Source: Macrostomum lignano
Taxonomy: Eukaryota
Length of the DNA stretch: 64,000 bases
Direction of reading: 5' to 3'
Assembly: GCA_002269645.1 (NCBI GenBank)
Contig: NIVC01001116.1
Location: 35,222-99,221, forward strand
In this document: piece after piece, positions 23,801-64,000 of the stretch
Position numbering within the stretch: the stretch's first letter is position 1
Layout: each line of letters opens with the position of its first letter
Made by a program: the position numbers and the translations under genes
The notes under the pieces: generated by a model
Databases searched by the model: none
Seen by the model: only the letters and a program-made list of their open reading frames with translations
What the model was told of the DNA's origin: nothing

Positions 23801-25100
23801 CCCAAGACCAGTCACACGTGAGGAGCTCCAGACCCATCAGCGAGCTGACTCCGCCATCGCGATGATGATCAACCTAATTGAAAGTCAACAACCGAAGCCA
23901 CTGCTAAATCAGCGTTTGAATCTGACGAGAGATGAGAGAAATCTCCTAGCATTCTTTGAGCAATTGGAAGTCCAAGATGACGGACTATTAGTCATTCATC
24001 TTGATGATGTTGGCGAGGAGGATAAAGTGAGGATCGTCTTGCCAAAGAGTCTTGACGCAGCCGTGTTTGCCGACCTGCATGGTTCTCCCTACTGCGGACA
24101 CATGGGCCGAGATCTCACCATTGCGAAAGTGCGCAAAAGATTCTGGCGACCGGCCCTGGCCAAGGCTGTGTCCGACTATGTTGCTTCCTGCCAGACCTGC
24201 ACTCAGAGCAAAGGACAGCGACGCATCCCAGTGCATGTACAATCATTTCTGGTCTGCGAAATCTATGGGCGATGTGCGATCAACATCATGGGCCCCACTG
24301 GAGACCTAACAGACCGAGGCAACAAGTACATACTCACCTACGTCGACACGACGTCAAAGTATCCATTCGCCTTTGCCATGAAGAATCAGCGGGCCAAGAC
24401 AATCATAACTCTGCTGCAGGAACAAGTCTTCCCGATCACTGGAATCCCCACGTGGATCCATTCGGATCAAGGCAAGCAGTTCATTGGGCACAAGTTTTGG
24501 CATTTCTGTGAGGTCTATGGCATCTGACAAACCACAACGCTGCCATACTCGCCCTGGGCCAATGGACAAGCTGAATCGTGCAATAAAAACATCAAGAAGA
24601 TGCTCACTTGTCTCCTCGAAGATCATCAACAGTGGGACAAGATGTTGCCAGCCGCCTTGACAGCCCTGCGATCAGCTGTAAACCACACGACGGGATTCTC
24701 GCCACACTATGTCATCTACAGAGTGCCTTATCGCTATCCGATTGATAATACCCTAGACTGCCTGGACGTATCGCCAGACCTCCCCGAGTATATCGCGAAA
24801 CACCAGCGCAGACTGGCCGAGACTGAGAGGATTATGCGACAACAACTGCGAGCTGAGATCCAACGCCGCGAAGAGTACTACGAGAACCGGCCTAAGCCCG
24901 TGAAAAGCCTGGAGACCTGGTCTGCTTAGCCAACCCAAAGCTTGAGTAGGGCGAATTGCCCAAGTTCCACCGGCCATACAAAAGCATGTACAAGGTCAGC
25001 AAAAAGGTTGGCGAAGTAGCCTACTGGATCCAGCCAGCAACAGCCCGATGTGGATGCCCCGCCAAAATGCTTGTACACCGCAACAACATCATCAAGGTGC
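20900..25100 (+). pseudogene. pol: pol (PR-RT-RNase H-IN) with multiple premature stops
   Basis: PR LLDTGS; RT MPMGLSSAPASF and YLDD; RNase H DTDAS; IN LHGSPYCGH...CQTC, IHSDQGKQF, PYSPWANGQAE; GPY/F-like PKFHRPY. Confidence 0.92.
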
Positions 25101-44500: not shown

Positions 44501-47500
44501 TAAAATAGAAAATCCGCTACCAAGTAACCAAGGTAACCCAAGGTGTAGCAGTCTAGACCGTAGTCGACTCTTCTTAACTTTTAAAGCTGTCAGTGAATGC
44601 ACATATAAACCCACTATGGGTGAATGCACCCATAAACCCGTAAAACGACACCACAACTAAATGAACTTCAAAAGTTCAACGACTCACCAAAGTCCCGACG
44701 TTGGTACCGCCGGGCCCCAGTCCCAGCTGAACGAATAGGCTGGCTTGCGAATGAAATTGAAGTAACACTCGCCGTTGTAGGTCAACGGCGGACAGTCTGG
44801 CGGCACTGGATAGCCAAACTTCGATGCGTAATTCTCTGCAGCTTGTCTTGCATAGACAATGGGAGACGTCAGGCTGACTGTGAGGTTGTTCTCTCCAACC
44901 TGAGGGGGATACATTTGTTGATTTGACCCCTGTCAAAACTTTTTTTAGGTCAGTGAACCCATTTGTAAGGCTTGACTAGAAAATATGCCACAACAGTAGC
45001 GCTACCAAGAAGCAAGGTCGAATCGCCTCAGCAGTACTTGGTTGTGGGAAAATGTCGCTGAGAGCGTTGCGTCAGGGTGGACCTACATAGATTCTTTATT
45101 ATAAACGCTCCAAAGTCCTGAAATTTTAGCAAGCAACTTACAACTAACAAGCTCTTCACACTGATTCGGTACTCTCTCCAGTAGTTATCGCAGCTGGCTA
45201 TTAGATGACGATTGTTCAGAATCACCTGACCGATGGTGTCAACACCATCTAGTACCAAGTCTATTGCGGCCGATGATTGGGCAGCGCTGTGGTTGACTGA
45301 AAATTTTCAAACGTAAAGTAATATTTATGTCGAAAATTGTTGCTTAAAGTTCTTTCTAAGCGAACTCCTAGACAGTAGGTTGCTGAGCAGCCACCACCGC
45401 TCAGCAGGTTGCTGCGCCAGCCTCCCAGATCCTCAGTGGCTGTACCAGCATCCCACATCCAGAGTTGCTGGGCCAGCCTCACAGATCCTCAGTTGCTGGG
45501 CCAGCATCCCAGAGTGTCAGTTGCTGGGCCAGCCTCCCAGACCCTCAGTTTCTTGGCCAGCGTCCCACATCCCCAGTTGCTGGGCCAGCATCCCAGATCC
45601 TCAGTTGCTGGGCCAGCCTCCCAGTTTCCCAGTTGCTGGGCCAGCCTCTCAGATCCTCAGTTGCTGGGCCAGCCTCCTAGATCCCCAGTTGCTGAGCCAG
45701 CCTCCCAGATCCCCAGTTTCTTGGCCAGCCTCCCAGATCCCCAGTTGCTGAGCCAGCCTCCCAGATCCTCAGTTGCTGGGCCAGCCTCCCAGATCCTCAG
45801 TTGCTGGGCCAGCCTCCCAGATCCCCAGTTGCTGAGCCAGCCTCCCAGATTCTCAGTTGCTGGGCCAGCCTCTCAGATCCCCAGTTTCTAGGCCAGCCTC
45901 CCAGAGTGTCAGTTGCTGGGCCAGCATCCCAGAGTGTCAGTTGCTGGGCCAGCATCCCAGAGTGTCAGTTTCTTGGCCAGCCTCCCGGATTTTTTCTATC
46001 TTTCTGTCTCCGAGGGCATAGCGTGGCAACTTTAATACATAAAGCATCATTGCATTAAACTCTGATGTTTGGAAACAGCTATTCGGTTTAGATGTTTACA
46101 AAATAGCAGCTCAGTTTTTTTAGAAATTTTCCACAAAATTTCCGCAGAGTATTCGTAGGACTAGAAGCCTGGCCACACCCAAGCCACTCTCAGTATCTCA
46201 GTACGCCGGTACTTAATTGCTTTGCGTTCAATACTTGAGCATTGACAAGCATGCGGTGAGCTCTCAACTGCTTTCCTTACTTTCTTGTGAAACAATAGCA
46301 TGAATTGTCACAAGCATTGCCATTCTGCCACTTTGCGTCACATTTCTGTCTTGTTTTTGAATCTGCGCAGCCTCCACTGAGACTGAAATCCACTTCGCGT
46401 TCATTCTGAGCAAAAAAATATGCTTATATTATAGTGTGTTTTCGCTATTGAAAAACATTGCTACTTTCGGAGCATTGTGGACAGGGGAATTCAAGACAAT
46501 GGTGTATAAAATCTGAAAACGCACAATAAATTTCTTAGACCAGTTGAGCCAACCTCATCTATTCGTTAAGCAATGCACAGAGCGGCTACTGAGTCTGTCG
46601 GACAAGCCCCAAATTTGCTTTTTTTCTCTTTTAATTGTCCTTCTGGCATCTGCATCTCTCTCACTTCACCTGACCTCTATTTCTCTGTCCTATTTGTGAA
46701 AAATATGTTTTTCTCGCACGCAAATTGCTACGCTCGCACTGTTCAACCAAAAAAACAGAAGCTTTTCTATCTCTCTCTCCCCCCCCCTCGTATTCACCAT
46801 GGCAACCGAGTGTTATAAATGGCAGGATTTCTCAGTAATTTTTTTTTCAAAAAGCAACGACAAGCAACAAACTTCTAAGAAATACGGATTGCAAATATGA
46901 AATACTTGATTGTCTCTGTTGCCATTTTGGCTGCTTTTATCTGTAAGTTTCCAATATTAATTCTCTGTAACCTGTTAGATACAGAGGAGTCACCTGTTAG
47001 ACACAGAGGAGTCACCTGTTAGACACAGAGGAGTCACCTGTTAGACACAGAGGAGTCACCTGTTAGACACAGAGGAGACACCTGTTAGACACAGTGAGTC
47101 ACCTGTTAGACACAGAGGAGACACCTGTTAGACACAGTGAGTCACCTGTTAGACACAGAGGAGACACCTGTTAGACACAGAGGAGACACCTGTTAGACAC
47201 AGAGGAGTTACCTGTTAGACACAGAGGAGTCACCTGTTAGACACAGAGGAGTCACCTGTTAGACACAGAGGAGACACCTGTTAGACACAGAGGAGACACC
47301 TGTTAGACACAGTGAGTCACCTGTTAGACACAGAGGAGACACCTGTTAGACATAGAGGAGACACCTGTTAGACACAGAGGAGTCACCTGTTAGACACAGA
47401 GGAGTCACCTGTTAGACACAGAGGAGTCACCTGTTAGACACAGAGGAGACACCTGTTAGACACAGTGAGTCACCTGTTAGACACAGAGGAGTTACCTGTT

Positions 47501-50500
47501 AGACACAGAGGAGTCACCTGTTAGACACAGAGGAGACACCTGTTAGACACAGTGAGTCACCTGTTAGACACAGAGGAGTTACCTGTTAGACACAGAGGAG
47601 TCACCTGTTAGACACAGAGGAGACACCTGTTAGACACAGAGGAGACACCTGTTAGACACAGAGGAGTTACCTGTTAGACACAGAGGAGTCACCTGTTAGA
47701 CACAGAGGAGTCACCTGTTAGACACAGAGGAGACACCTGTTAGACACAGAGGAGACACCTGTTAGACACAGTGAGTCACCTGTTAGACACAGAGGAGTTA
47801 CCTGTTAGACACAGAGGAGTCACCTGTTAGACACAGAGGAGACACCTGTTAGACACAGAGGAGTCACCTGTTAGACACAGAGGAGACACCTGTTAGACAC
47901 AGTGAGTCACCTGTTAGACACAGAGGAGTTACCTGTTAGACACAGAGGAGTCACCTGTTAGACACAGAGGAGACACCTGTTAGACACAGAGGAGACACCT
48001 GTTAGACACAGAGGAGTTACCTGTTAGACACAGAGGAGTCACCTGTTAGACACAGAGGAGTCACCTGTTAGACACAGAGGAGACACCTGTTAGACACAGA
48101 GGAGACACCTGTTAGACACAGTGAGTCACCTGTTAGACACAGAGGAGACACCTGTTAGACATAGAGGAGACACCTGTTAGACACAGAGGAGTCACCTGTT
48201 AGACACAGAGGAGTCACCTGTTAGACACAGAGGAGTCACCTGTTAGACACAGAGGAGACACCTGTTAGACACAGAGGAGTCACCTGTTAGACACAGAGGA
48301 GTCACCTGTTAGACACAGAGGAGACACCTGTTAGACACAGAGGAGACACCTGTTAGACACAGAGGAGTCACCTGTTAGACACAGAGGAGACACCTGTTAG
48401 ACACAGAGGAGACACCTGTTAGACACAGTGAGTCACCTGTTAGACACAGAGGAAACACCTGTTAGATATAGAGGAGACACCTGTTAGACACAGAGGAGTC
48501 ACCTGTTAGACACAGAGGAGTTACCTGTTAGACACAGAGGAGTCACCTGTTAGACACAGAGGAGTCACCTGTTAGACACAGAGGAGTCACCTGTTAGACA
48601 CAGAGGAGTCACCTGTTAGACACAGAGGAGACACCTGTTAGACACAGAGGAGACACCTGTTAGACACAGTGAGTCACCTGTTAGACACAGAGGAGACACC
48701 TGTTAGACATAGAGGAGACACCTGTTAGACACAGAGGAGACACCTGTTAGACACAGAGGAGTTACCTGTTAGACACAGAGGAGTCACCTGTTAGACACAG
48801 AGGAGTCACCTGTTAGACACAGAGGAGACACCTGTTAGACACAGAGGAGTCACCTGTTAGACACAGAGGAGTCACCTGTTAGACACAGAGGAGACACCTG
48901 TTAGACACAGAGGAGACACCTGTTAGACACAGTGAGTCACCTGTTAGACACAGAGGAGACACCTGTTAGACATAGAGGAGACACCTGTTAGACACAGAGG
49001 AGTCACCTGTTAGACACAGAGGAGTCACCTGTTAGACACAGAGGAGACACCTGTTAGACACAGAGGAGACACCTGTTAGACACAGAGGAGACACCTGTTA
49101 GACGGAAGAGTTAGGGACAGTTTCCATAGAGACAGATTGATCACGCAGCCCATCATTTAATTTTCACAGCGAACGCTGCTGCGTCGATCACCTGCTACTC
49201 GAGGTCCTCATCGACTAGCTATACCAGCAACGGAACTACGACCCTCTGTGCCTTTGACAGCAGCTGCTACACATATGACTACGGAGAAGTGCGTCACACG
49301 CTCGTTTTAGCCTGACTCTTTCCTGACACCCACTGATTCCTTCCCGACACCCACTGATTCCTTCCTGAAACCAGTGACTCCTTCCCGACACCCACTGACT
49401 CCTTCTTGACACCCACTGATTCCTTCCCGACACCCACTGACTCCTTCCTGAAACCAGTGACTCCTTCCCGACACCCACTGACTTCTTCTTGACACCCACT
49501 GATTCCTTCCCGACACCCACTGACTCCTTCCCGACACCCACTGACTCTTTCCCGACACCCACTGACTCTTTCCCAACACCACTGACTCTTTCCCAACACC
49601 CACTGACTCTTTCCCGACACCCACTGACTCCCTCCAGACACCACTGACTCTTTCCCAACACCACTGACTCTTTACCGACACCCACTGATTCTTTCCCGAC
49701 ACCCACTGACTCCTTCCAGACACCACTGACTCTTTCCCAACACCCACTGACTCTTTCCCGACACCCACTGACTCCCTCCAGACACCACTGACTCTTTCCC
49801 AACACCACTGACTCTTTCCCGACACCCACTGACTCCCTCCAGACACCACTGACTCTTTCCCGACACCCACTGACTCCCTCCAGACACCACTGACTCTTTC
49901 CCGACACCCACTGACTCCCTCCAGACACCACTGACTCTTTCCCAACACCCACTGACTCCCTCCAGACACCACTGACTCTTTCCCGACACCCACTGACTCC
50001 CTCCAGACACCACTGACTCTTTCCCGACACCCACTGACTCCCTCCAGACACCACTGACTCTTTCCCAACACCACTGACTCCCTCCAGACACCACTGACTC
50101 TTTCCCGACACCCACTGACTCCCTCCAGACACCACTGACTCTTTCCCGACACCCACTGACTCCCTCCAGACACCACTGACTCTTTCCCAACACCCACTGA
50201 CTCCCTCCAGACACCACTGACTCTTTCCCGACACCCACTGACTCCCTCCAGACACCACTGACTCTTTCCCGACACCCACTGACTCCCTCCAGACACCACG
50301 GACTCTTTCCCAACACCACTGACTCTTTCCCGACACCCACTGATTCTTTCCCGGCACCCACTGACTCCTTCCAGACACCACTGACTCTTTCCCGACACCC
50401 ACTGACTCCCTCCAGACACCACTGACTCTTTCCCGACACCCACTGACTCCCTCCAGACACCACTGACTCTTTCCCAACACCACGGACTCTTTCCCAACAC

Positions 50501-53500
50501 CACTGACTCTTTCCCGACACCCACTGATTCTTTCCCGGCACCCACTGACTCCTTCCAGACACCACTGACTCTTTCCCGACACCCACTGATTCTTTATCGG
50601 CACTCACTGACTCCTTCCAGACACCACTGACTCCTTCCCAAACACCTACTGACTCTTTCCCGACACCCACTGACTCCTTCCCAAACACCTACTAACTCCT
50701 TCCCGGACACCACTGACTCCTTATCGACACCACTGACTCACATCCGACGTTTCTAATTACTCCTTGATCTAACCCAAGCAATTTTAAATAAGTATAAAAT
50801 GACTGTGCACTCATTTTGTTAAGTCTACCGCAGCAAAACCGAATTTTGCCCCTATACAGGACAACTTTGCTGGTTGTGGCACCTGCTCCGGGTATTCTTA
50901 CACCACCTGCAAAGCGTGCACTGCCAGCTACTGCAATACTCGACCGCCTGTTCTGAACTGTTACTACAGCAATGGAGACTATCTTCACAGCAGCCGAAGG
51001 AGGAGGAGATGTGAAAGTAGCTATTGCTATGAGTACAGCTTTACCTATGCTACTATCGATGTGAGTTTCAGACTCAAGTCGGAGTGCTGAAGTAATGTCT
51101 AATTTTATAATTTTATAGAATTAAAGTATAAAAATCTCTTTAACGGTTAGACAGCATCTTTGACCTGTTAGACAGTGACGTCAACCTGTTAGACAGTGAC
51201 ATCAACCTGTTAGACAGTGACATCAACCTGTTAGACAGTGACGTCAACCTGTTAGATAGTGACATCAACCTGTTAGATAGTGACGTCAACCTGTTAGACA
51301 GTGACGTCAACCTGTTAGATAGTGACATCAACCTGTTAGATAGTGACGTCAACCTGTTAGACAGTGACGTCAACCTGTTAGATAGTGACATCAACCTGTT
51401 ATACAGTGACGTCAACCTGTTAGACAGTGACGTCAACCTGTTAGATAGTGACATCAACCTGTTAGATAGTGACGTCAACCTGTTAGATAGTGACATCAAC
51501 CTGTTAGATAGTGACGTCAACCTGTTAGACAGTGATGTCAAACTGTTAGACAGTGACGTCAACCTGTTAGACAGTGATGTCAACCCGTTAGACAGTGACG
51601 TCAACCTGTTAGACAGTGACGTCAACCTGTTAGATAGTGACATCAACCTGTTAGATAGTGACGTCAACCTGTTAGACAGTGACGCCAACCTGTTAGACAG
51701 TGACGTCAACCTGTTAAACAGTGACGTCAACCTGTTAGATAGTGACATCAACCTGTTAGACAGTGATGTCAACCTGTTAGACAGTCTTCAACAACACTAG
51801 TATTGTCCCCATCATCATAGATCTTCTTCGCCGGCTGTGGAGAGTGCTCAAAGCTCGACTCCTATAGCAACTGTAGAGCCTGCAACAGCGGGGACTACTG
51901 CAACTCTGCCGCCAGTCTTCGAGGCTGGAATTTTACCGCCTTCGCCACCGCCGTCATTCTGGCTATGATTCGGTTGCTGTGACTCTGTTAACAAATGTCT
52001 GTCACGTGTTAACTTCAAACAGATTTATTTATTCCTGATTACCTCGTCTGACGCTTCTATTAGCCATCACAGCTCGCATTAACTGTCTCATCTGACAGAG
52101 TGGATGACCGCGAACCTATCCAGATACAGGGTGAAACAACTTGATGAAGAATAAAAACTTACTGATTGAAAAAATGTTTGTTTTATTATATATTCACTTA
52201 GCAGAGAATGCTAATATTCAATAACTAGTTGCCCTTTCTTTCATGAACAAATTTATTGTTTATTTTAGTGGAGCAGAAGGTTTGCTGGACCAGCCTCCTA
52301 GATCTTCAATTGCTGGACCAGCCTCCCATAACCCCAGTTGCTGAGCCAGCCTCCCAGATCCTCATTTGCTGGGCCAGCCTCCCAGATCCTCAGTTTCTTG
52401 GCCAGCCTCCCTGATCCTCAGTTGCTGGGTCACCAGCCTCCCAGATCCTCAGTTGCTGGGCCAGCCTCCCAGATCCTCAGTTGCTTGGCCAGCCTCCCAG
52501 ATCCTCAGTTGCTGGGCCAGCCTCGCAGATCCTCAGTTGCTGGGCCAGCCTCCCAGATCCTCAGTTGCTGGGCCAGCCTTTCAGATCCTCAGTTGCTTGG
52601 CCAGCCTCCCAGATCCTCAGTTGCTGGGCCAGCCTCGCAGATCCTCAGTTGCTGGGCCAGCCTCCCAGATCCTCAGTTGCTGGGCCAGCCTTTCAGATCC
52701 TCAGTTGCTTGGCCAGCCTCCCAGATCCTCATGATGTGTTCCTTATTACCAGTCCTCAACTGTAATCAAGGAACAATCACTTCTAGCTCTGTAGCTAGGC
52801 AACCCAGTAATCAAATGAAGGTATTCAATTACCTTTGAGTCCTTAAATGAGAGCTCTCGTAATAATCCTCGTCCGTAGTATCGCGATCAGTAACTTTCCT
52901 GTCCTTCAGGAAGTTTAGGCGCCTGGTAACAGTTGATCTGGTCCGTTATCTCCTTTGTCCTCTTGACTTCTTGCCGGCCGGTATCTGTAGTTCGGACCAA
53001 TAAGAAGCTTCCAAATTAACAATGGGTACCCTGCGCCAAACTGCGGTTTAATATAAGCCTACTCCTTCTAGTAGTGCCTCTATGCACTCTAGGTATGGCT
53101 CCGGAAACCACTGATAGTCTTCTAAGATCTATCAGGGGCAGTCCTTCTGGAGACTGCAACCAGTGGAGTCTAAACAGACTCAAGAGTCTCAGCAGACTCA
53201 AATAAACTCAAGTCTCAATAGACTTGAGCGAGACGTCTCAACCAACGGGCGCAAATGAGTAAGGCTTACCGCAAGAACTCGTCCACGACGCGAGTTTCTT
53301 CAGGAAGGCTTCACTAGAGCTTCCTCTTCGGAGCTTCTCTCCCTTGGAGATTGTTGGCTCCGGGTCCGTTCCGGACCACTTGTATTTATAGGCGTTCAGA
53401 CCTCTCTCGAGGTCGTACATCACTGTCTTCGCAAATGTCAAAGGGTCACGATTCGGTGGCTGTCAAGCATGACAGGGTAGAAAGTTGCGCAACTAGTCTA

Positions 53501-56500
53501 CTGTAAAAGCGCATGATTGGTTACCGTAGCTGGTAGACTTTGATTGGTTCATCCGGGTGCAACCCGAGTGCAAACAAAATGATGACTTGAAGGTGGGGTT
53601 TGAATTGACAGTTGTTGGTCGCACGTGATTGGGTGATTTCTAAAATTAGCATGCTCGAGGTCTCTCTCTTCCTATTGGTTAGTCCGAATATACTTATAGT
53701 TCAAAGCATACCTTTATTCATGCTCTTCAATTTACTACTAAATAAAATGTGTGAGTAGTACATTAACACTTTTATGTCTTCTTACGGGAGGTAGAACACT
53801 CTACAAAATCTCCCATGTTTACAAAAAAACTCGTCCCGAGTTTTAAAGAGAGGATTGAAACGCATAAAAAGTTCAAGCATGTCTTTATAATAATCATTTG
53901 TCATAAGTGTTACAGGTATTTAGTAATGGGTAGTTAAGAGCGTTGGTTATAAAAGTTATTTAAAGGTAAGTATACGCATGCAAATAAAATGTTTTTGGTT
54001 ACAGTATTGACATGTGCGCCAAGACTAACAATAGGCGCACTGCCGCAAACTACTTCTACCTATCGGGTAATTCTGCCAGAGCTGAATATAATGTGAGTCG
54101 CTTAAACATTGTCCGCATATGCGATGTCTGTTTTCACAAATAATTGGTGGCTTGACAGCCAAGTCATCAGTTAAACATATTGGGCATTCGTAGAGTTGCT
54201 GTAGTTGGGGCGCCTGTTTGGACAGTGCGTTGCCCATTGTCGTTGTCGCTTGAAGTTTGAAGTCGCTCAGATTAGTCGCCTCTTACGACAAGCTTGCGAA
54301 GCTGTAGAGCTATTCTGACCCGGTCTCTACACGGGTTGTTTTCGCAACTTAACGAGGTCGCAGATTGTAGCCATGGTGCTGGTTCTCGGTTGATGTTTGT
54401 GTCTCCTCGTGTTTTGTTGCGATGTGGCGGTTCGCCGAACGCGTGCGATCAGCGTTGCCTAGTGACGGTAAAAATGTTGTCGTGTCAGTGTTGATCTTCT
54501 TTAGTCGATGAATGTGCACGTAGAATTGGTGCTGATGAGGATCTTGCACATTGGCCAGGCGTGCCGTTGTCGGTGACGTTAGTTGGACCACTCGATATGG
54601 TCCTTTGTACTTCTGTGCGTGTTTGTGCGTCTGTTGCGGCGGATAGTGCAGGTAGACGATGTCGCCGGCTGTCAGAGTTGTCGATCTCGTGTCGGTGCCG
54701 GTGGTTAGAGCCACCTGATTGTCGATGTTGTGCTTGGCTACTTTCCATGCGAGGTGTAGTTGCGTGACGAACTTTTGAATGGACGTCGGGACTTCCACAT
54801 ATTGCGATGGTAGTAGTTGCTGTGCCAATAGGTTTGGTGGTTGGAAGTCTCGTCCAAACATTAGAAAGAATGGCGTATTGTCCGTTGATCGATGAATAGC
54901 GCTGTTGTAGGCCATTGTTACTGCTTGCAGATAGATGATCCAGTCGTCCGGTTGTTGATGCGCGAAGTGTGTAATCATCTCGTGTAGGTTGCGGTGAAAC
55001 CTTTCAACCATGTTCGCCTTCGGATTGTAGGTCGATGTGTAAATCTGCGTGATGTTGAGGATCTTCACCACTTGCTGAAAGAGTTGAGACGTAAACTGCG
55101 ATCCATTGTCCGATGTGAGGTTCTTTGGCGTACCGTACTTGCAGATGATGTCGTTGAAGAAACCCATTGCCACTGTCTGAGCTGTGATGTCCGGTATTGG
55201 TATGGCAATAGCAAACTTTGAGAAAATGTCCAAGGCTGTTAGGATGTAGGTGTAGGCTATGCCATGGAGACAGCTCGGTGGCAGCGGTCCGGTGATGTCG
55301 ATGCTGAGACAGTCCATAGTTGTTGACTTTGGTATCGATTGTAGCTGTGGTTTTTGTCGTCGTCCTGTCTTCGATGCTGCGCATGAGTGGCAGTTGTTGC
55401 AATACTGCTTGATGTCGCCATGCATGCTTGGCCAAAAGTAGTATTGCTCCACTCTTGCAACGGTTTTGGCTGCCGACAGGTGTCCAGCGAGTGGGTTGTC
55501 GTGCAGCTCGTTGAGAATTGCCTGCCTAAACGAATATGGCATGTAGATTTTAGGTTTGTTGTCACTCATCCAGTAGAGTCGTGACTTGTTGATTGTTAAA
55601 TGTTGTCGCTGCTTGCGCAGGAATTTTCGTTCCACGGGGCTGAGCTTGATGTCCTTGTCGTTGTTTTTAACTGCTATGTAGAAGTTGTCGTGTTCCGTCT
55701 CATCCACCAATTCCTTGATGTTAGGGATTGGATGAATGGCGTTGACTTCGTAGGCTCTTGACAGGGCGTCCGCGGCCTTGTTAGTAATTCCTGGTTTGTA
55801 GACGAGCTTGTAGTTGTAGTCCTGGATCTTGAGTGTCATCCTGATGAGTCGGTTGTTTGTTTGTCCTTTTGTAGTTACGACGTAGGTCAGCGGTGCGTGA
55901 TCTGTGCGTACTATCGTCTGTAATGGAGATCCATAGATGTAGTAGTGAAACTGTCGTAGGGCGAACAGAACTCCTAGTAGTTCTCGTTCCGTAGCTGACC
56001 ATTTTGTCTCATTCGGTTTAAGTGCTCGACTGACGTAGGCTATAGGTCGTTCCTTTTTGTCTTCAGTTTCCTGTAGTAGGACTGCTCCGAGTCCCGTTCC
56101 TGAGGCGTCTGTCTCGATGATGAAGGGTTTGTCGAAGTCCGGATGCTGTAGCAGTGCGTCTGATGTCAGCTGTCGTTTGATTTCGTCAAAACTTTCTTGT
56201 TGCTTTTGTGTCCAATTCTCCTGCTTCCATTTGTCGAACTTGAGCAGGTCGTACAGCGGCTTTGCTGTCTTCGCGAAGTTGGGTAAGAACTTTCGGAAGT
56301 ATTGCGCAAGTCCAAGAAATGATTGGACCTTCGTTTTGCTAGTTGGCGTAGGAAACTTTTTCACTTTATCCACGTTGTCTGGGTCCGGTGAAATTCCTTT
56401 GGCTGTCACCTGATGTCCCAGGTAACGCACGTTGTCTCGGAAGAATTTGCATTTAGTTGGTTGTAGCTTCAGACCTTGACGTTGTATAAGCGCGAGGGCC

Positions 56501-59500
56501 TTCTCCGTCGCTTCATAGAGTCGTTCGAAGTCTTCTCCGTAGGCCAAGATGTCGTCAACATAGTGCAACAGGTTCGTGCATCCTGCAAGCATGTATGCTG
56601 TTAGTCGGCTCATCGTTGCTGGGCTGTTGCTGAGTCCCATCGGCGATCGATTGTACTCGTATACTTGTCCATTGTAGGTTTTGAAAGCCGTGTACTGTCG
56701 TGACTCTTTCTCGATTTCAATTTGCCAAAATCCATGACGTAGATCGAACACTGTGAACAATTTTGCCGTGTTGAGCTTTGCTAGTAGTTCGGAGATCTTC
56801 GGTAGGCTTTGCTGATCCGTCGGTATGTACTTGTTCAGTAGTCTGAAGTCACATACGAGTCGTCTTTCGTTAGTCTCCTTCTTTTGCACCAAGAGACATG
56901 GTGATGAGTATGCTGAAATGGCTTTGCTGATGATGCCGTGTTTCAGCATTTTGTCGATAATCTCATCGAAGTGCTGTTGCAGATGCTTGGCGATCGGGTA
57001 CGGTTTGCACTGAATTGGTTCCGTGTGCGGCAGAAGTTTGATTTCCTGTTTGATGTCCTTGGCTCGTCCGATGTCGTAGTCATGGTGGCAGAAAGCGTCG
57101 TTGTACTTCCACAACAGCTGTCGAACTTTCCTCTTTTGCTGTTCCGTAATCGGGCTGTCATCCAAATTGATCTTCTTTTGAAATTCTTCCTCTGTTAGTC
57201 GTGGAGTCGCTTGCTCAATCAGCATAACCGATGCTTGGGTGTTGAGATGACCGATGCACATTCCTTGTCGTAGATGAACCGTTTCTGTGTTCGGGTTGAA
57301 TATTTGTACTGGCAGCTGTTTATCTTTTGCAACCAGTACTAGTGCCGTAGGCATCATAATTTGGTGTTTAGCCGTGACTCTTCTGTTTGGGTCGAATATC
57401 ATTGCTTCCTCCGTTGCGTTAGTTGCCTTTGCCTTTATCCAGCAGGCGCTCTCCGGTTGGATGATGACATCTTGTTGCAATGTTACTTTTGGTAGTACTC
57501 GGATCTGGTTGATCAATGGTTGTTCTACCGAGTCGATCTTGAACGTTTGCTTATTGAAGTCGAAGGTCAATGGTAGTCGAAGCTGCTTGAACGTGTCGAT
57601 GCCAACAATAACGTCCTGGTTTGGGAGTCTGTCGATGACGTACGTTGGAACTGTCAAATGTTTATTAGCGATTCTTAAATCAATGTCGGCTTTTCCCAGA
57701 ATGTTTAGCGAATGTCCTCCTGCTCCTGCAACTGCGATTGTTGCTGGCCGTAGAGCAAGTCGTAGCTTGTTGCACAGTTGTTTTGATATAACTGTGATGG
57801 AGCTGCCGGAGTCGAGTAGCGCTCGACATGGTAGATTGTTGATTACCACTTGAGCCATGGCTTTGCCAATTTCGGCGTGTAGAGTACATACGTAGTTCTC
57901 TGGCCATTTTGGGTCTTGCTGTTCTGCTTGATAGTTAGGTGGTTGTATTCTTGGTGCCGTTGGTGTTGTCGGAATCGATGGATATAGCCGCGTTGCTAGT
58001 GTCGGTTGCCCTTGAACCTCACGATGTGCAGTTTCTGTTAGTTCTAAACTGTTGTCGCCTTCCGTTGTCGTTCTTTGCATTATGGCATTCACTGTCTTCT
58101 TAGCTTTGGACAAGTTTGACTGAAGCACCGTACGATCGACGAAATGATGAAGATTGCCGTGACAATCCACACAATGCAAGCACCGTAGAAGATGAATCCT
58201 TGATAGAGACTGCCTCTTCCATTGAGCAGCTCCCAGAAGCTGTTTGTCCAAAATGATTTGATGGCGCTGTCCATTGAAACAAGGACGGGAAATCTTCCTG
58301 TCCCGGTTCCTTTGTCCTTTCTTGTGAACAGCTGGTGAATCATCTTGCGTTGGGTGATGAACGCTTGCAAGAAGTCGTTGATCGTCCATCCTGGTGTTAT
58401 CTCGTCAAGTTGGATATCGGCGAATGGCGTATACTTCGTTCTGTTGAATCGGATTTTCAAATCCTCCATGTCGTAGTTTTCGTCGACGATTACTTCCGGT
58501 TCTGTGATGTTTGCTGTCGTTCCAGTTGTTTTGATGACGTGTAGTGCATTGTCCAGTTGATAATAGTTTGCTGCCGTGGTGCAAGGTCTCGGTATTGCGG
58601 TGCCAACGATGATGTTGTGTACCGTGTCCAAGAATCCCTGAATTCGTTTTCCTTCGTAGAACGCTTCAATCCTTGGCTTGTCGTAGCAGGTTGTTGACGT
58701 GTTCGACGGCAAGATGTTAAAGTGCTGTATCGGCGTGCACTTGTATATCAACAGATGCTCGTATATTGGAACTGCCAAAACGTTCGTCATTCCGGTGATT
58801 TTACGAAAAGTCATCGTAGGGTTGACATAGTAGTTTTGTCTGGCATAATTTAAGTTGATTGCGTGCATTTTGCAAGTTAGCTGGACCAGTGTTCGATGCA
58901 AGTGGTTTAACTGGTTGTGTAGATTGTGATCCAAAGCCGTTATCTTTGCTGACAGTAGTCGGTTTGACACCAGTTTGGGACGTTCGATGTCACGTCGTCG
59001 TCTGTTCTGTTGTTCCTGCTGTTGATACGTTCCGTTGATGATCGCCAGAAAGGTTTGTTTGTCGTCATCTTTTACGTAGACTGGTATCTCTTGTTCCGAG
59101 ATGAATAGTGTCTTGTCTGTATCCTTGCATTTCAGTTTTTGCTCGACTGGTTTCTTTTGAAACGTCAGTGCCAAGTCTCCTGACTTTGCCAAAAACGTGT
59201 TTGACAGTAGACCTCCTTCAACTGTGTGATACTTTTGAAGCTTGCAGTCAATTTCCGGCTCAACTTCCCACGCGAAGAAGTATTGTCGTGACTTAGATGG
59301 TTCTTCATATCGTGAGTCGCCTCTGCGTATAATTTGCCATCGATAGTCTTGATGATATGTTGGACTCAACGGTAAGCTGTATAGTTCCTCATTCCGCAGT
59401 ATCGGCGTTGGACACCATCCTTTGCTGTATCGGCAGTCGCTTAATTGCAGTTGTAGCGACTCCATTTTTTCAAAAGGATTGTGGTAGAATGGAATATTCC

Positions 59501-62500
59501 TGATTAGGTAACTGTTTCGTGTCATGTAGTTAGTCCATGCTTCCGAAAAGTGTACATATCGTCCGTTTGCTGAGTTCTTCGTTCGGTAAAGTTGTGCCTC
59601 CCCCACTTTCTCATCCGGTTCTAGCTGACCATCCTTTGAGAACAGTGTTTGGTTCCATTGTAGACATTCAGCGTGCGACACATGTAGTTCGTGTTGCCAA
59701 AATCGAATTCTGTTCCATTGTCCTCGCCAAACTTTTTCCACTAGGTGCTTGTCTCTAAAGCACACTATTCCGAGTTGTCGATGCTTCTTGATGTTAGCTT
59801 TGTAGAGATCAATTGTGATCTTCTTTGGCTTCGTCTGATTTGTCTTGAAGTAGCTGCATTTGATGTCGGTTGGTATCTTGTAGATCATCGGTTGGATATG
59901 CGCATCCGTTGGACATATCATTGGTTTTCCATTGCTGTTGCTTTGGTGACTACTGCCGTCAGTAGTATTATGATGATCCAGAATATCCAGAATCGCCATT
60001 TTCTGAACGTTGCCGTTGTCTTTGCTGGCATTGGCTGCGGCTGCCATTCGTTATCTTCTGCGTCCGCATCGTATTCTTCCTCTTGTTCCATTGGCGTTTC
60101 CGAGCGCAAGGCATCCGATTCGTTCCGCTGCTTGTCGTCTTCATCATTTTCTTCCTTGCTTTCTTCCGATGTTGTAGTTGTGTCACTCCATTGTCTGCGG
60201 TACCTCACTTCGGCCTTGTAGTCGACCGTTTGAATGTAGGCTTCACCATTTCGTTTATATCGGATCTCGTAGCATTGATCGCTGTCGGAGCTTAGATTTC
60301 TTTCTTCCATTCCTTTGTGCCTTCCGTCTTCATGTTCTTTGTCGGCGGCTTGGTTGTCATCAGCGTCATTCTGCATCTCATAATCGTGATCGCTGCTTTC
60401 TTCTTGCTGTTCTTCTTCCATCTCTGCATTTCCGTCGTTGCTTCTTTCGTTGTCATCCTTCGTTGCCAGTTCTTTGTCGTTGCCTTTGTTTGTTTCTTCT
60501 TTTCTTTCACTGATGTCGCTTGCAATGTTTTTTCTGTGCTCACTTCTGTCTTTTCTTCTTCGCTGTCAATGTTAGTTTCTTTCATTTCGACCATGCTGAT
60601 GTTTTTTGTCTTTTCGCTGCTCTCCGCATCGAGCCAGTCGATTTCATTGATAGTGAAGTCCATTTCAAGTCGTCTATCGTGAAGACTTGCTGCTCTTGCT
60701 GTTCGCTTTCCGGTGTGTACGTGATGGCGTTTGCATATCGTTGCATCGCTTGCGTTGGTTGCTTGGGCATGTATCTGGCGTTTCGCGGTCTGTAGCCATT
60801 GTTTCCGAAGCGTTTCGTGTTTTGCTGCTGCCAATTTTGATGTTGTTGCCATGGTTTTTGCGGCTTCCTTCTGTTGAATGGCTGTCGCTGCATGTCATTT
60901 CTTGTTGACCGATGAGGACAATGTATTTGGTAGTGTCCTTCTCGTCCACAGTAATAGCATCTGGCTTGGGCTCGTTCATTTCGTCTTTTTTGTTCGGCGA
61001 TAACGGCTGTTTGATGTTGCATCAGTTTGTTTAGTTGCTGTGTCAGTTTCTGCACTTCTGTGTTGCCGGTTGTCATTAGTGGAGCGCTTGCTTCCCACTG
61101 CATTCCGCACCGTAAAAGGTCTTCCTCGGTTTCAATGTTTTCGCGTAGAAGTCTATCTCGGAGTGACGGCTGTGCATTGTTTATTACGTGCAGAATCAGA
61201 TTTTGTTCGCGATCCATCAATCGCTGTCGCTCTCTAGCGGCTAATTCTGCCGCACCCAGAGGTGGTTGGTCTGCAGCTGGCAGTGTTGGCTGATGCAGTG
61301 CCTTAATTATCTGACGGATGTCGTCCACAAAGGTCAGGAAGGATTCGGTTGGCTGCATCCTTCTGTTATGCAACTTGTGCAGTAGCACTGATCTGTTTGT
61401 GCCACAGCGGTTGAAATGCGCGCGCAGTTGAATGATTAATGCTGGGTAGTTTTGCTGTGTTGCCGCATCTAGTTTACCATAAATCTCTCGTGCAGTGCCT
61501 TGGAGGAGTGGTGGCAACAGTTGCGCTTTTTCTGGATTTTGTAGGTTGTATTCCCTACATACCAGGTCAAAATGATCAACAAAGGTGTTAAAGTCTTTTT
61601 CCATAGAAAAGGTGCCAACTGTCTCTTTGATATCTCTGTGCACCGTTGGATTGCGCCGCGCCATGTTGTTGATGGGATAGAACGGTAGCTCTAGGTCTGG
61701 GTCGATTTGTAATGGATCTTCCAGTGTGGTGTTTCTTTCGAAATAAACTTCGGTTGTAACTGATTGTCTCGCGGCGCTTTTGACACCTCAATTTGTTATG
61801 TCTGACCTTGACGGAATTCGGCTTTTGGCTGCTTTTTCTGACCTCTTATTCGCTGGCTGATTTTCGCACTTATGCGGCGTCCCGCAAAGTGTATCTTTAA
61901 AGTGCTTGAAGTGCAGCTGCTTCTTGCTTTTTTCAAAGGCCTTTCTTGTCTTCGTGACGTGCCTTGTCACGTTTTATCAAATTTCGGTTTGTTTTAGCTT
62001 TCGTCAAGTGTTTTTAATTTCGGTTTTGTTTTAGTGTGTATTGATTATTTTTCGGTTTGTTTTCAGTGTACCGGACGTTGTTTTCGGTTTTGTTTAAGGT
62101 TTACTCTTGCTCGAGCTCGTTAAAAACAAAAATTTAACACGCGTGCTCAAACGTTACTCAAAATTGACAGGTACTCAAGCCTGTATACCTAAACTTTTAC
62201 TCGAGTTTCAAATCGTACAAAAATCGAAAAGTGTCGAAAAGTGTTACCTCTAACACGTGCGCGCAAAATTAATGAAGTCGCTCTTTCGTCACTTTACAAT
62301 AGCTTGGCCAGGCTATTGCTCAAAAGTTTGAGTAGTGCCGAGAGGGCGAGATCACCAATTGATGTGTTCCTTATTACCAGTCCTCAACTGTAATCAAGGA
62401 ACAATCACTTCTAGCTCTGTAGCTAGGCAACCCAGTAATCAAATGAAGGTATTCAATTACCTTTGAGTCCTTAAATGAGAGCTCTCGTAATAATCCTCGT

Positions 62501-64000
62501 CCGTAGTATCGCGATCAGTAACTTTCCTGTCCTTCAGGAAGTTTAGGCGCCTGGTAACAGTTGATCTGGTCCGTTATCTCCTTTGTCCTCTTGACTTCTT
62601 GCCGGCCGGTATCTGTAGTTCGGACCAATCGGAAGCTTCCAAATTAACAATGGGACCCTGCGCCAAACTGCGGTTTAATATAAGCCTACTCCTTCTAGTA
62701 GTGCCTCTATGCACTCTAGGTATGGCTCCGGAAACCACTGATAGTCTTCTAAGATCTATCAGGGGCAGTCCTTCTGGAGACTGCAACCAGTGGAGTCTAA
62801 ACAGACTCAAGAGTCTCAGCAGACTCAAATAAACTCAAGTCTCAATAGACTTGAGCGAGACGTCTCAACCAACGGGCGCAAATGAGTAAGGCTTACCGCA
62901 AGAACTCGTCCACGACGCGAGTTTCTTCAGGAAGGCTTCACTAGAGCTTCCTCTTCGGAGCTTCTCTCCTTGGAGATTTTTGGCTCCGGGTCCGTTCCGG
63001 ACCACTTGTATTTATAGGCGTTCAGACCTCTCTCGAGGTCGTACATCACTGTCTTCGCAAATGTCAAAGGGTCACGATTCGGTGGCTGTCAAGCATGACA
63101 GGGTAGAAAGTTGCGCAACTAGTCTACTGTAAAAGCGCATGATTGGTTACCGTAGCTGGTAGACTTTGATTGGTTCATCCGGGTGCAACCCGAGTGCAAA
63201 CAAAATGATGACTTGAAGGTGGGGTTTGAATTGACAGTTGTTGGTCGCACGTGATTGGGTGATTTCTAAAATTAGCATGCTCGAGGTTCTCTCTTCCTAT
63301 TGGTTAGTCCGAATATACTTATAGTTCAAAGCATACCTTTATTCATGCTCTTCAATTTACTACTAAATAAAATGTGTGAGTAGTACATTAACACTTTTAT
63401 GTCTTCTTACGGGAGGTAGAACACTCTACACTCAGTTGCTGGGCCAGCCTCGCAGATCCTCAGTTGCTGGGCCAGCCTCCCAGATCTCAGTTGCTGGGCC
63501 AGCCCCAGATCCCCAGTTGCTGGGCCAGCCTCCCAGATCCTCAGTTGCTGGGTCACCAGCCTCCCAGATCTCCAGTTGCTGGGCCACCTTTTCAAAATTC
63601 TCGGGCTCTGCACTAACCGTACAACTTCGCCTCGTAGGTCCAGTTAGCATTGGCAACCCAACGCGTTTTGACGTCATTAAACTCGGCGATGGGATCCGGA
63701 ATTATTCCAGCCTGTCGTAAGTCGCTGTAAACATCTCCAGGCACCGAGCCAGGCACTGAGATCGCACCTACAAAGTTGTTAAGTTTGGTGTCATTTATTT
63801 TGTAGAATATCAATCAACTGGGACAGTAAATGCTTCATTTATTGCTCACCATCTGAACGGCGCAGAGCCCATTGAACATTTGGCGTATTTAGTGAGATTT
63901 TTGTCGTAATGGCGAATTATAAAATAACGTTTCGCTTTGCACTACTAGTCTGCCGTTAAACAGTAGAACTGTGAAGACACTATTAAGAAAAATTGTCCAA
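38559..64000 (-). CDS. MANBA: Beta-mannosidase (GH2 family)
   Basis: Exons: 63850-end (signal peptide; apparent 1-bp loss at 63898-63902), 63618-63767, 45142-45296, 44688-44899, 43871-44165, 42978-43322, 42127-42538, 41432-41742, 40525-40974, 39837-40046, 38559-38798 (a GTAAGT near its end may splice to a tiny terminal exon). Motifs FSWDWGP, LWWPNGYG, MLRVWGGG, IWQDF, VWVGNNENE, SEFGFQS, YWQLNDVW. Confidence 0.95.
38846..39705. repeat. 34-bp tandem repeat in a MANBA intron
   Basis: Unit TCAGTGAGCATCCTTATCCCTCAGTGCCGATCCT, highly homogeneous. Confidence 0.96.
45378..45985. repeat. 28-bp tandem repeat (GTTGCTGGGCCAGCCTCCCAGATCCTCA), array 1
   Basis: Same unit recurs at 52285-52731 and 63431-63590. 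Confidence 0.93.
46897..51982 (+). CDS. Two-domain Ly6/uPAR (three-finger)-like secreted protein with GPI signal, 175 aa, nested antisense in MANBA intron 2
   Basis: Exons 46897-46942, 49170-49288, 50860-51060, 51821-51982 are in phase. MKYLIVSVAILAAFISNAAASITCY...FAGCGTC...CKACTASYCN...LNCYY...CESSYCY...FAGCGEC...CRACNSGDYCNSAA followed by a hydrophobic tail. Absent from the ORF track. Confidence 0.85.
46970..49103. repeat. 22-bp minisatellite (CACCTGTTAGACACAGAGGAGW) in intron 1 of the Ly6-like gene
   Basis: Direct tandem copies. Confidence 0.97.
49320..50730. repeat. 20-22-bp C-rich minisatellite (CCGACACCCACTGACTCYYT) in intron 2 of the Ly6-like gene
   Basis: Direct tandem copies with alternating variants. 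Confidence 0.96.
51140..51785. repeat. 21-bp minisatellite (CAACCTGTTAGACAGTGACGT) in intron 3 of the Ly6-like gene
   Basis: Direct tandem copies. Confidence 0.96.
52285..52731. repeat. 28-bp tandem repeat, array 2 left part (continues at 63431-63590 beyond the LTR element)
   Basis: Same unit as 45378-45985; interrupted at CTCA. Confidence 0.92.
52732..53805 (-). repeat. 3' LTR (1074 bp)
   Basis: Direct repeat of 62360-63430; preceded on the minus strand by purine-rich AAACATGGGAGA (PPT-like). Confidence 0.95.
54025..54237 (-). CDS. 70-aa C3HC4 RING protein with N-myristoylation signal
   Basis: ATG in strong context (ACAATGG); MGNALSK; C18-x2-C21-x12-C34-x3-H38-x2-C41-x2-C44-x22-C67-x2-C70. 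Confidence 0.8.
   Translation of the reverse strand: MGNALSKQAPQLQQLYECPICLTDDLAVKPPIICENRHRICGQCLSDSHYIQLWQNYPIGRSSLRQCAYC
54349..58110 (-). CDS. pol: pol: protease-RT-RNase H-integrase, uninterrupted
   Basis: LLDSGS; PMGLSNSPATM and YVDD; ETDASGTG and TDHAPL; LHDNPLAGH...CNNC; IDITG, SDNGSQF, VERFHR; KYKGPY. Confidence 0.96.
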   Translation of the reverse strand, partial: SKAKKTVNAIMQRTTTEGDNSLELTETAHREVQGQPTLATRLYPSIPTTPTAPRIQPPNYQAEQQDPKWPENYVCTLHAEIGKAMAQVVINNLPCRALLDSGSSITVISKQLCNKLRLALRPATIAVAGAGGHSLNILGKADIDLRIANKHLTVPTYVIDRLPNQDVIVGIDTFKQLRLPLTFDFNKQTFKIDSVEQPLINQIRVLPKVTLQQDVIIQPESACWIKAKATNATEEAMIFDPNRRVTAKHQIMMPTALVLVAKDKQLPVQIFNPNTETVHLRQGMCIGHLNTQASVMLIEQATPRLTEEEFQKKINLDDSPITEQQKRKVRQLLWKYNDAFCHHDYDIGRAKDIKQEIKLLPHTEPIQCKPYPIAKHLQQHFDEIIDKMLKHGIISKAISAYSSPCLLVQKKETNERRLVCDFRLLNKYIPTDQQSLPKISELLAKLNTAKLFTVFDLRHGFWQIEIEKESRQYTAFKTYNGQVYEYNRSPMGLSNSPATMSRLTAYMLAGCTNLLHYVDDILAYGEDFERLYEATEKALALIQRQGLKLQPTKCKFFRDNVRYLGHQVTAKGISPDPDNVDKVKKFPTPTSKTKVQSFLGLAQYFRKFLPNFAKTAKPLYDLLKFDKWKQENWTQKQQESFDEIKRQLTSDALLQHPDFDKPFIIETDASGTGLGAVLLQETEDKKERPIAYVSRALKPNETKWSATERELLGVLFALRQFHYYIYGSPLQTIVRTDHAPLTYVVTTKGQTNNRLIRMTLKIQDYNYKLVYKPGITNKAADALSRAYEVNAIHPIPNIKELVDETEHDNFYIAVKNNDKDIKLSPVERKFLRKQRQHLTINKSRLYWMSDNKPKIYMPYSFRQAILNELHDNPLAGHLSAAKTVARVEQYYFWPSMHGDIKQYCNNCHSCAASKTGRRQKPQLQSIPKSTTMDCLSIDITGPLPPSCLHGIAYTYILTALDIFSKFAIAIPIPDITAQTVAMGFFNDIICKYGTPKNLTSDNGSQFTSQLFQQVVKILNITQIYTSTYNPKANMVERFHRNLHEMITHFAHQQPDDWIIYLQAVTMAYNSAIHRSTDNTPFFLMFGRDFQPPNLLAQQLLPSQYVEVPTSIQKFVTQLHLAWKVAKHNIDNQVALTTGTDTRSTTLTAGDIVYLHYPPQQTHKHAQKYKGPYRVVQLTSPTTARLANVQDPHQHQFYVHIHRLKKINTDTTTFLPSLGNADRTRSANRHIATKHEETQTSTENQHHGYNLRPR
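58089..60000 (-). CDS. env: Envelope glycoprotein, class III (herpes gB / chuvirus G-like)
   Basis: Hydrophobic signal WRFWIFWIIIILLTAVVTKATA, Cys-rich ectodomain with NxS/T sites, furin-like RRRR at 58992-59003, gB-like NPTMTF...LLIYKCTPI and CYDKP segments, C-terminal TM FIFYGACIVWIVTAIFIISSIV. Confidence 0.8.
60001..60670 (-). CDS. Acidic linker between the Gag nucleocapsid region and the Env signal (frameshifted in this assembly)
   Basis: Parts of track ORFs 60292-60852 and 59918-60421; D/E-rich. Confidence 0.6.
60582..61664 (-). CDS. gag: gag (capsid + CCHC nucleocapsid)
   Basis: FNTFVDHFDLVC...LLQGTAREIY, RRMQPTESFLTFVDDIR, zinc knuckle CYYCGREGHYQIHC. Confidence 0.92.
   Translation of the reverse strand: MARRNPTVHRDIKETVGTFSMEKDFNTFVDHFDLVCREYNLQNPEKAQLLPPLLQGTAREIYGKLDAATQQNYPALIIQLRAHFNRCGTNRSVLLHKLHNRRMQPTESFLTFVDDIRQIIKALHQPTLPAADQPPLGAAELAARERQRLMDREQNLILHVINNAQPSLRDRLLRENIETEEDLLRCGMQWEASAPLMTTGNTEVQKLTQQLNKLMQHQTAVIAEQKRRNERAQARCYYCGREGHYQIHCPHRSTRNDMQRQPFNRRKPQKPWQQHQNWQQQNTKRFGNNGYRPRNARYMPKQPTQAMQRYANAITYTPESEQQEQQVFTIDDLKWTSLSMKSTGSMRRAAKRQKTSAWSK
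62344..62357 (-). promoter_or_regulatory. Primer-binding site (tRNA-Val-like, inferred)
   Basis: TGGTGATCTCGCCC two bases after the 5' LTR end. Confidence 0.65.
62360..63430 (-). repeat. 5' LTR (1071 bp)
   Basis: Direct repeat of 52732-53805. Confidence 0.95.
63009..63303 (-). promoter_or_regulatory. LTR U3 promoter: TATA box with four upstream CCAAT boxes
   Basis: TATAAATA at 63009-63016 (minus strand); CCAAT near 63142, 63169, 63254 and 63299. Confidence 0.6.

Follow-up and report, generated by a model that had tools for sequence, protein, structure and literature searches.

Candidate late-domain motifs between the Env anchor and the protease of a gag-env-pol Ty3/gypsy element in Macrostomum lignano

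A 64,000-nucleotide stretch of the Macrostomum lignano genome (contig NIVC01001116.1; hereafter, the window) carries a retroelement in which three short motifs of the kind used in viral budding stand between an Env membrane anchor and a protease, rather than in Gag. Are these motifs late domains kept by selection, and are Env and Pol made as a single product that would carry them to a membrane? An earlier note, drawn from the letters of the window, had proposed budding motifs and a joined env-pol product.

The motif-bearing element is a 10.7 kb Ty3/gypsy LTR element in the order gag-spacer-TM1-Env-TM2-linker-PR-RT-RH-IN, with all of its features on the minus strand. Its 5' LTR (62360-63430) and 3' LTR (52732-53805) have TG...CA ends and are 99.4% identical; the 12-nt primer-binding site (62346-62357) equals that of an M. 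lignano gB-type element in an eLife supplement, and a 4-bp target duplication flanks the element within a 28-bp tandem array. Together, these features indicate a recent Ty3/gypsy insertion, and the pol order PR-RT-RH-IN agrees with membership of that group. The gag frame (60582-61787, first Met at 61664) carries one CCHC knuckle at about 60912-60959, has Ala and not Gly at position 2, and is broken near its end in the window copy. An acidic Gag-side spacer (59918-60565, with frame breaks at both ends in the window copy) ends in TM1, a putative internal signal/anchor at about 59936-59995 that is flanked N-terminally by basic residues. The Env ectodomain (58200-59930), which has a furin-like RRRRD near 58990, is followed by TM2, the Env membrane anchor (58143-58199), which has a basic C-terminal flank; env is thus placed between gag and pol with a membrane segment on either side, as in the GAG-ENV-POL layout. 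A putative assignment of this Env to the class III or gB-chuvirus type comes from a PF24664 match at 58545-58955 that falls under the cut-off (E 2e-5, 23 bits), a cut-off exceeded in relatives, 11 of 63 genome matches; Atlas feature neighbours (0.82-0.87), taken as a lead only, are mostly class III fusogen families. A linker of 107 residues joins TM2 to the retropepsin protease (57595-57852, DSG at 57805-57813) and contains, just after TM2, TVNAI, a putative protease site (58081-58095). Domain matches place RT (56407-56886), RNase H (55816-56214) and integrase (55021-55539) in a region that runs to a stop (54349-56886). The nearest named proteins, P0003 (96% identical) and P0005, are from M. 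lignano.

Other repeats share the window with this element. The 28-bp array occupies 52282-52731 and 63431-63586 on its two flanks, and its unit is arrayed again at 45408-45990; fragments of a second LTR element lie at 21546-24524 on the plus strand, with RT and integrase in separate frames; and tandem arrays at 2417-3336, 46970-49103, 49312-50739 and 51163-51785 (units of 20/40, 22, 41 and 21 bp, respectively) give rise to long spurious open frames.

Translation of the window at 57931-57987 gives the 19 residues LYPSIPTTPTAPRIQPPNY, which contain LYPSI (57973-57987), PTAP (57952-57963) and PPNY (57931-57942), bearing out the claim that an LYPx(I/L), a PTAP and a PPxY motif fall within 19 residues. 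Their proposed place between the Env anchor and the protease also stands: the cluster lies about 50-70 residues past TM2, in a frame shared with protease, RT, RNase H and integrase. PTAP is of the TSG101 UEV type, PPNY is a PPxY of the NEDD4 WW type, and LYPSI is an ALIX-type YPx[IL] motif that also fits YxxPhi; we take [LM]YPx[LI], which covers LYPSI, to be an ALIX-type pattern that allows a terminal Ile. The cluster matches the three established late-domain classes, P[TS]AP, YPXnL and PPxY (PMC8402826), with the window's YPx ending in Ile and so standing outside strict YPXnL. When the 1,351-aa pol frame was shuffled 20,000 times, all three motifs were present anywhere in 47 shuffles and within 19 residues in none; 200,000 composition-matched shuffles of an 85-aa linker likewise yielded no triple within 19 residues.

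The proposal of a joined env-pol product fared differently in the window copy and in its relatives. In the window copy, env and pol occupy different frames, with breaks near 58.1, 59.9, 60.5 and 60.7 kb, the first of which separates env from pol a little upstream of TVNAI, whereas in 22 of 30 copies (the best loci of 40 scored, out of 76 candidates) a single open frame runs through TM2 and the protease, and in eight it does not; the motif cluster is intact in one frame in 28 of the 30. P0003 spans Env, the motifs and integrase in one named protein. Beyond env-pol joining, gag, env and pol form one frame in other copies: six of the 20 long stretches place CCHC, protease and RT, together with two membrane anchors, in a single 2,370-2,540-aa frame, and frames of at least 2,370 aa hold 12 of the 63 env matches. 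A profile search for long fused relatives among 7,999 candidates recovered only P0003 and P0071. Intact copies show that one predicted polyprotein, Gag-spacer-TM1-Env-TM2-linker-PR-RT-RH-IN, is encoded, with the motifs in its linker. A programmed frameshift between env and pol was also considered and rejected; it appears unlikely, since most copies have a single frame and contigs from all four public runs deviate from the window at the env-pol break. As run contigs merge many copies, this deviation fits assembly error and a defect of the window copy alike. A search of sequencing runs listed no RNA run that contains the element.

In the three families examined (3/3), TM1 is preceded by five basic residues and TM2 is followed by three to five. 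From charge and order, TM1 would act as an internal signal anchor, with TM2 as the stop-transfer anchor; by the positive-inside pattern, Gag and the tail-plus-Pol portion would both be cytosolic, tethered to one membrane, with Env luminal.

We then considered whether the motifs are conserved beyond the window copy. Copies of the window's own subfamily are 94-100% alike, and the wider clade A provided 26 distinct linker DNA haplotypes from 70 overlapping loci. All three motifs are kept in 25 of these haplotypes. Only one of the ten motif-defining columns varies, and in a single haplotype, against 28 of 54 other linker columns (p = 0.017, Fisher test); states seen twice occur in 0/10 defining versus 20/54 other columns (p = 0.024). 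The same ten columns nevertheless show seven synonymous codon variants, and the free positions vary: PPxY takes N, T, G or I as its x, YP is preceded by L or M, and YPxI has S or L at x. Judged by this pattern of substitution, the motif cluster is real and under selection.

The env families of the genome, A (that of the window), B, C, D and E, fall into at least four deep env lineages. Family B is 60-75% alike in Env and protease, and families C, D and E are about 20-33% alike in these regions and 37-45% in RT, the protease identities of A3 and C3 being unreliable owing to frame breaks. Linkers between clades are 17-37% alike, which is near background. P[TS]AP is present in the linker of 12 of 15 family representatives, as is YPx[IL] (12/15); PPxY is found in five, all from clade A, and at least one late motif in 14. 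The shuffle chance per linker is 0.4-8% for P[TS]AP or YPx[IL] individually and 0.01-0.3% for both, probabilities that are not to be multiplied across families, because shared ancestry means that these are not independent trials. Motif order is swapped between clades, YPx[IL] preceding PTAP in A and P[TS]AP preceding YPx[IL] in B, C and D1, which points to loss of a motif at one place and gain at another. Late domains in general are short motifs that come several at a time and can be moved about or exchanged for one another (PMC8402826), and the flatworm motifs are flexible in position and conserved under selection.

This conservation has exceptions. Env family E (L061, L062) has no late motif in its linker, the D2 and D3 representatives have no YPx[IL] there, two broken D2-like copies have lost PSAP, and the P[TS]AP place is taken by PPAP in C2 and by PNAP in B1b. 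The last YPx position, canonically Leu, is Ile in most families. Family E keeps the gag-env-pol layout, and its linker is shorter. The segment before TM1, the other predicted cytosolic segment, holds motifs of its own: a PPxY just before TM1, on the Gag side, in clade B (L072, L076, L077, L078), and an additional PSAP, likewise Gag-side, in family D1 (P0005 residue 565). Two further patterns were seen in clades A-D. A WP dipeptide distinct from the late motifs is conserved some 30-45 residues before the protease DSG, in several distant proteins as well; and V/I/L-x-x followed by I/V/M recurs about 15-25 residues past TM2, resembling the RNase H/integrase border and possibly marking a protease cut that trims the Env tail.

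How specific these motifs are to linkers behind an Env anchor can be seen from several comparisons. Apart from the linker, four polyproteins (9,915 aa) contain one P[TS]AP, two YPx[LI] and two PPxY. Protease loci without an upstream TM gave no in-frame motif within 130 aa before the protease (0/41), these controls belonging to other clades, with linkers mostly less proline-rich and often shorter, several of them short and open. This env-less set, defined by the lack of a TM upstream of the protease, so that an env placed after pol lies outside the definition, retained 41 of 42 loci (L180, without a catalytic motif, was dropped) in 18 clusters at 80% and 11 at 60%; it contained three scattered motif matches further upstream or in other frames. 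The nearest env-less relatives by RT, at 35-39% identity, lie outside the 41-locus control. One env-less family (L167, L171) has a PTAP at the Gag tail just before the stop, and may use ESCRT without an envelope.

Distant relatives were drawn from a 50% library, from which named M. lignano proteins had been left out beforehand; 33 of 51 had scorable tails, and the 18 dropped proteins included ten that end before the TM, six in which no TM was found, and P0049, with a tail of less than 30 aa. A motif was found in 8 of the 33 tails against 1.8 expected, comprising 4 of 14 TM-protease linkers (p = 0.005) and 4 of 19 other tails (p = 0.013); P[TS]AP alone occurred four times against 0.22 expected. 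The other 25 of the 33 had no motif, and in similar strings of distant tails W or F replaces Y. Within this genome the feature is thus strong, whereas its occurrence elsewhere is patchy. The outcome that the earlier note had named as refuting its reading, lack of conservation in related elements, was not seen within the genome, and the reading is supported: the defining residues are fixed, and two motifs persist and change order across families 20-33% alike. The full triple is confined to clade A, and family E and most of the distant relatives have none.

Two of the partners that such motifs would engage are present in the host. M. lignano encodes a TSG101 UEV, with an end-to-end alignment to human TSG101 (E 1e-44), and ALIX V domains; the TSG101 UEV and ALIX V exons are each found at three near-identical places. 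Complex prediction of a 41-residue window peptide with the host TSG101 UEV scored 0.25 and 0.29, against a mark of 0.34, and was weighed neither for nor against binding. AlphaFold2 modelled a piece covering the Env C-terminus, TM, linker and protease with a mean pLDDT of 46.5 and the linker as coil, low in confidence throughout; because Env was modelled as poorly as the linker, neither a fold search nor a claim of disorder was based on this model.

We consider it probable, though well short of assured, that selection maintains these motifs as late domains that recruit ESCRT to the Env tail/Pol leader, where they would drive budding of a membrane-tethered polyprotein. TM1 would then tether Gag in place of a myristoylated matrix, which Gag, with Ala after its first Met and an anchor in TM1, would not need. 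TM2 would tether Pol, so that the enzymes would be packaged on the Env tail instead of Gag. By retroviral precedent, YPx[IL] would engage ALIX, P[TS]AP would engage TSG101 and ESCRT-I, and PPxY a NEDD4-type ligase, leading to membrane scission. The protease might subsequently excise a p6-like spacer, the motif peptide of roughly 70 residues, and shorten the Env tail, a more speculative step suggested by the resemblance of TVNAI to EVNAI at the RNase H/integrase border. Protease trimming of an Env tail has a precedent in the MLV R peptide. Budding speed may matter to this element, because a protease and a sizeable cargo would come with every chain. When ESCRT-dependent budding is delayed in HIV, enzymes freed by the protease return to the cytosol, and the requirement for TSG101 and ALIX rises with cargo size (PMC4900648).

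The same motifs could serve other ends. Motifs of this kind in the tails of host membrane proteins act as sorting signals, and here they sit on the cytosolic tail of a membrane protein; they might bind ESCRT and NEDD4 factors so that the Env-Pol precursor is sorted to multivesicular bodies and there turned over or exported in an exosome-like way, rather than for scission of a Gag particle. Every conservation result above fits such sorting equally well, and ZAM particles are said to take endosome or exosome routes (PMC3383448). Against it stand the tethering of Gag to the same membrane by TM1, the Gag-side motifs of clade B and D1, as expected if any cytosolic position in a particle serves, and the joint occurrence of three motif classes, which is a viral pattern (PMC8402826); we regard this reading as unlikely, but one to be kept in mind. 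Another possibility concerns YPx[IL] alone, which could be a YxxPhi adaptor sorting signal or an aromatic-Pro protease site, leaving P[TS]AP as the only late domain with PPxY as an optional extra. YxxPhi signals are common in viral glycoprotein tails and retropepsins cleave Tyr-Pro bonds; the usual Ile at the last position, the replacement of Y by W or F in distant tails and the separate WP ahead of the protease in clades A-D would all suit this alternative. YxxPhi, however, requires neither the Pro at +1 found in 12 of 12 motif-bearing representatives nor their L, M or I at -1. As for cleavage, families differ in the spacing between this motif and the protease motif that follows it (34 to 54 residues), and D2 and D3 lack it, unlike an essential site, and the domain borders seem to read V-x-A/T/L followed by I/L and not aromatic-Pro. 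This split of functions strikes us as rather improbable.

Chance is the least attractive account. P and T abound in the linker, the window-subfamily copies are so alike that a young family could have spread a fortuitous match, and scanning 64 kb amounts to many trials; but no composition-matched shuffle reproduced the triple, the x positions vary while the defining residues stay fixed, and the motifs recur in families beyond those first inspected, leaving chance matches in a Pro/Thr-rich spacer very hard to credit.

The architecture of the element is already known; no earlier description seems to exist of a single, doubly anchored polyprotein whose Env tail/Pol leader carries late domains. GAG-ENV-POL gB-type errantiviruses have been reported from Nematoda, Bryozoa and Platyhelminthes, and the present element resembles them in gene order, in a putatively gB/chuvirus-type env between two membrane segments, in its LTRs and in its many recent copies (PMC13524379). 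The supplement of that study lists one M. lignano element with 16 copies and the same 12-nt primer-binding site, which makes it probable that the window family, or a sister, is already catalogued; the sequence of the published element was not found in one supplement file. The main text of PMC13524379 has no mention of late domain, ESCRT, budding, PPxY, polyprotein, frameshift or fused, and no discussion of the TM-protease linker was found there. The full-text literature, with most subscription journals outside the search, yielded no description of late domains in a Ty3/gypsy Env tail, and nothing on env tails or late domains was found in the accessible text of PMC4604429, PMC12801592 and an Atlas-virus preprint.

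Among retroviruses, Gag late domains offer the closest likeness: the same three classes occur, several per element, in varying combination and order, as in HIV-1 p6 (PTAP and YPXnL), MLV (PSAP, LYPAL and PPPY) and HERV-K p15, and like those of HIV p6 the flatworm motifs stand just before the protease (PMC8402826). Unlike retroviral motifs in Gag, they stand on every translated polyprotein, after the Env anchor and at the head of Pol, and the flatworm Gag has no Gly2 and is followed by a TM. The Drosophila elements gypsy and ZAM are also env-bearing Ty3/gypsy elements, and a YXXL-like motif has been noted in gypsy Gag, but they differ in their gag-pol-env order and F-type env (PMC3383448). Bluetongue NS3, with PPXY, and the West Nile E motifs are precedents for ESCRT-type motifs on a membrane protein, although neither belongs to a retroelement or is fused to Gag and Pol.

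A bolder extension of the favoured reading, possible but on balance doubtful, is that these elements are infectious enveloped viruses that assemble unlike retroviruses. The doubly anchored polyprotein would bring Gag, Env and Pol to the membrane at 1:1:1; the Env tail, not Gag, would recruit ESCRT and carry the enzymes; removal of the late-domain spacer would switch on the class III fusogen; and the particles would move among somatic, stem and germline cells or between worms.

The transmission mechanism of errantiviruses has been called elusive (PMC13524379), and a 2012 review described their use of ESCRT as not known (PMC3383448); in these sources, whether env-bearing Ty3/gypsy elements outside Drosophila really leave the cell, and whether any errantivirus employs ESCRT, are stated as open. 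Since RNAi and transgenesis are available in M. lignano, natural particles and their dependence on host ESCRT would be directly testable in this animal. Late domains that selection has kept behind the Env anchor provide evidence of budding at the sequence level and indicate a particle in which Env, not Gag, carries Pol, and the retention of the motifs suggests that the element leaves cells as an enveloped particle.
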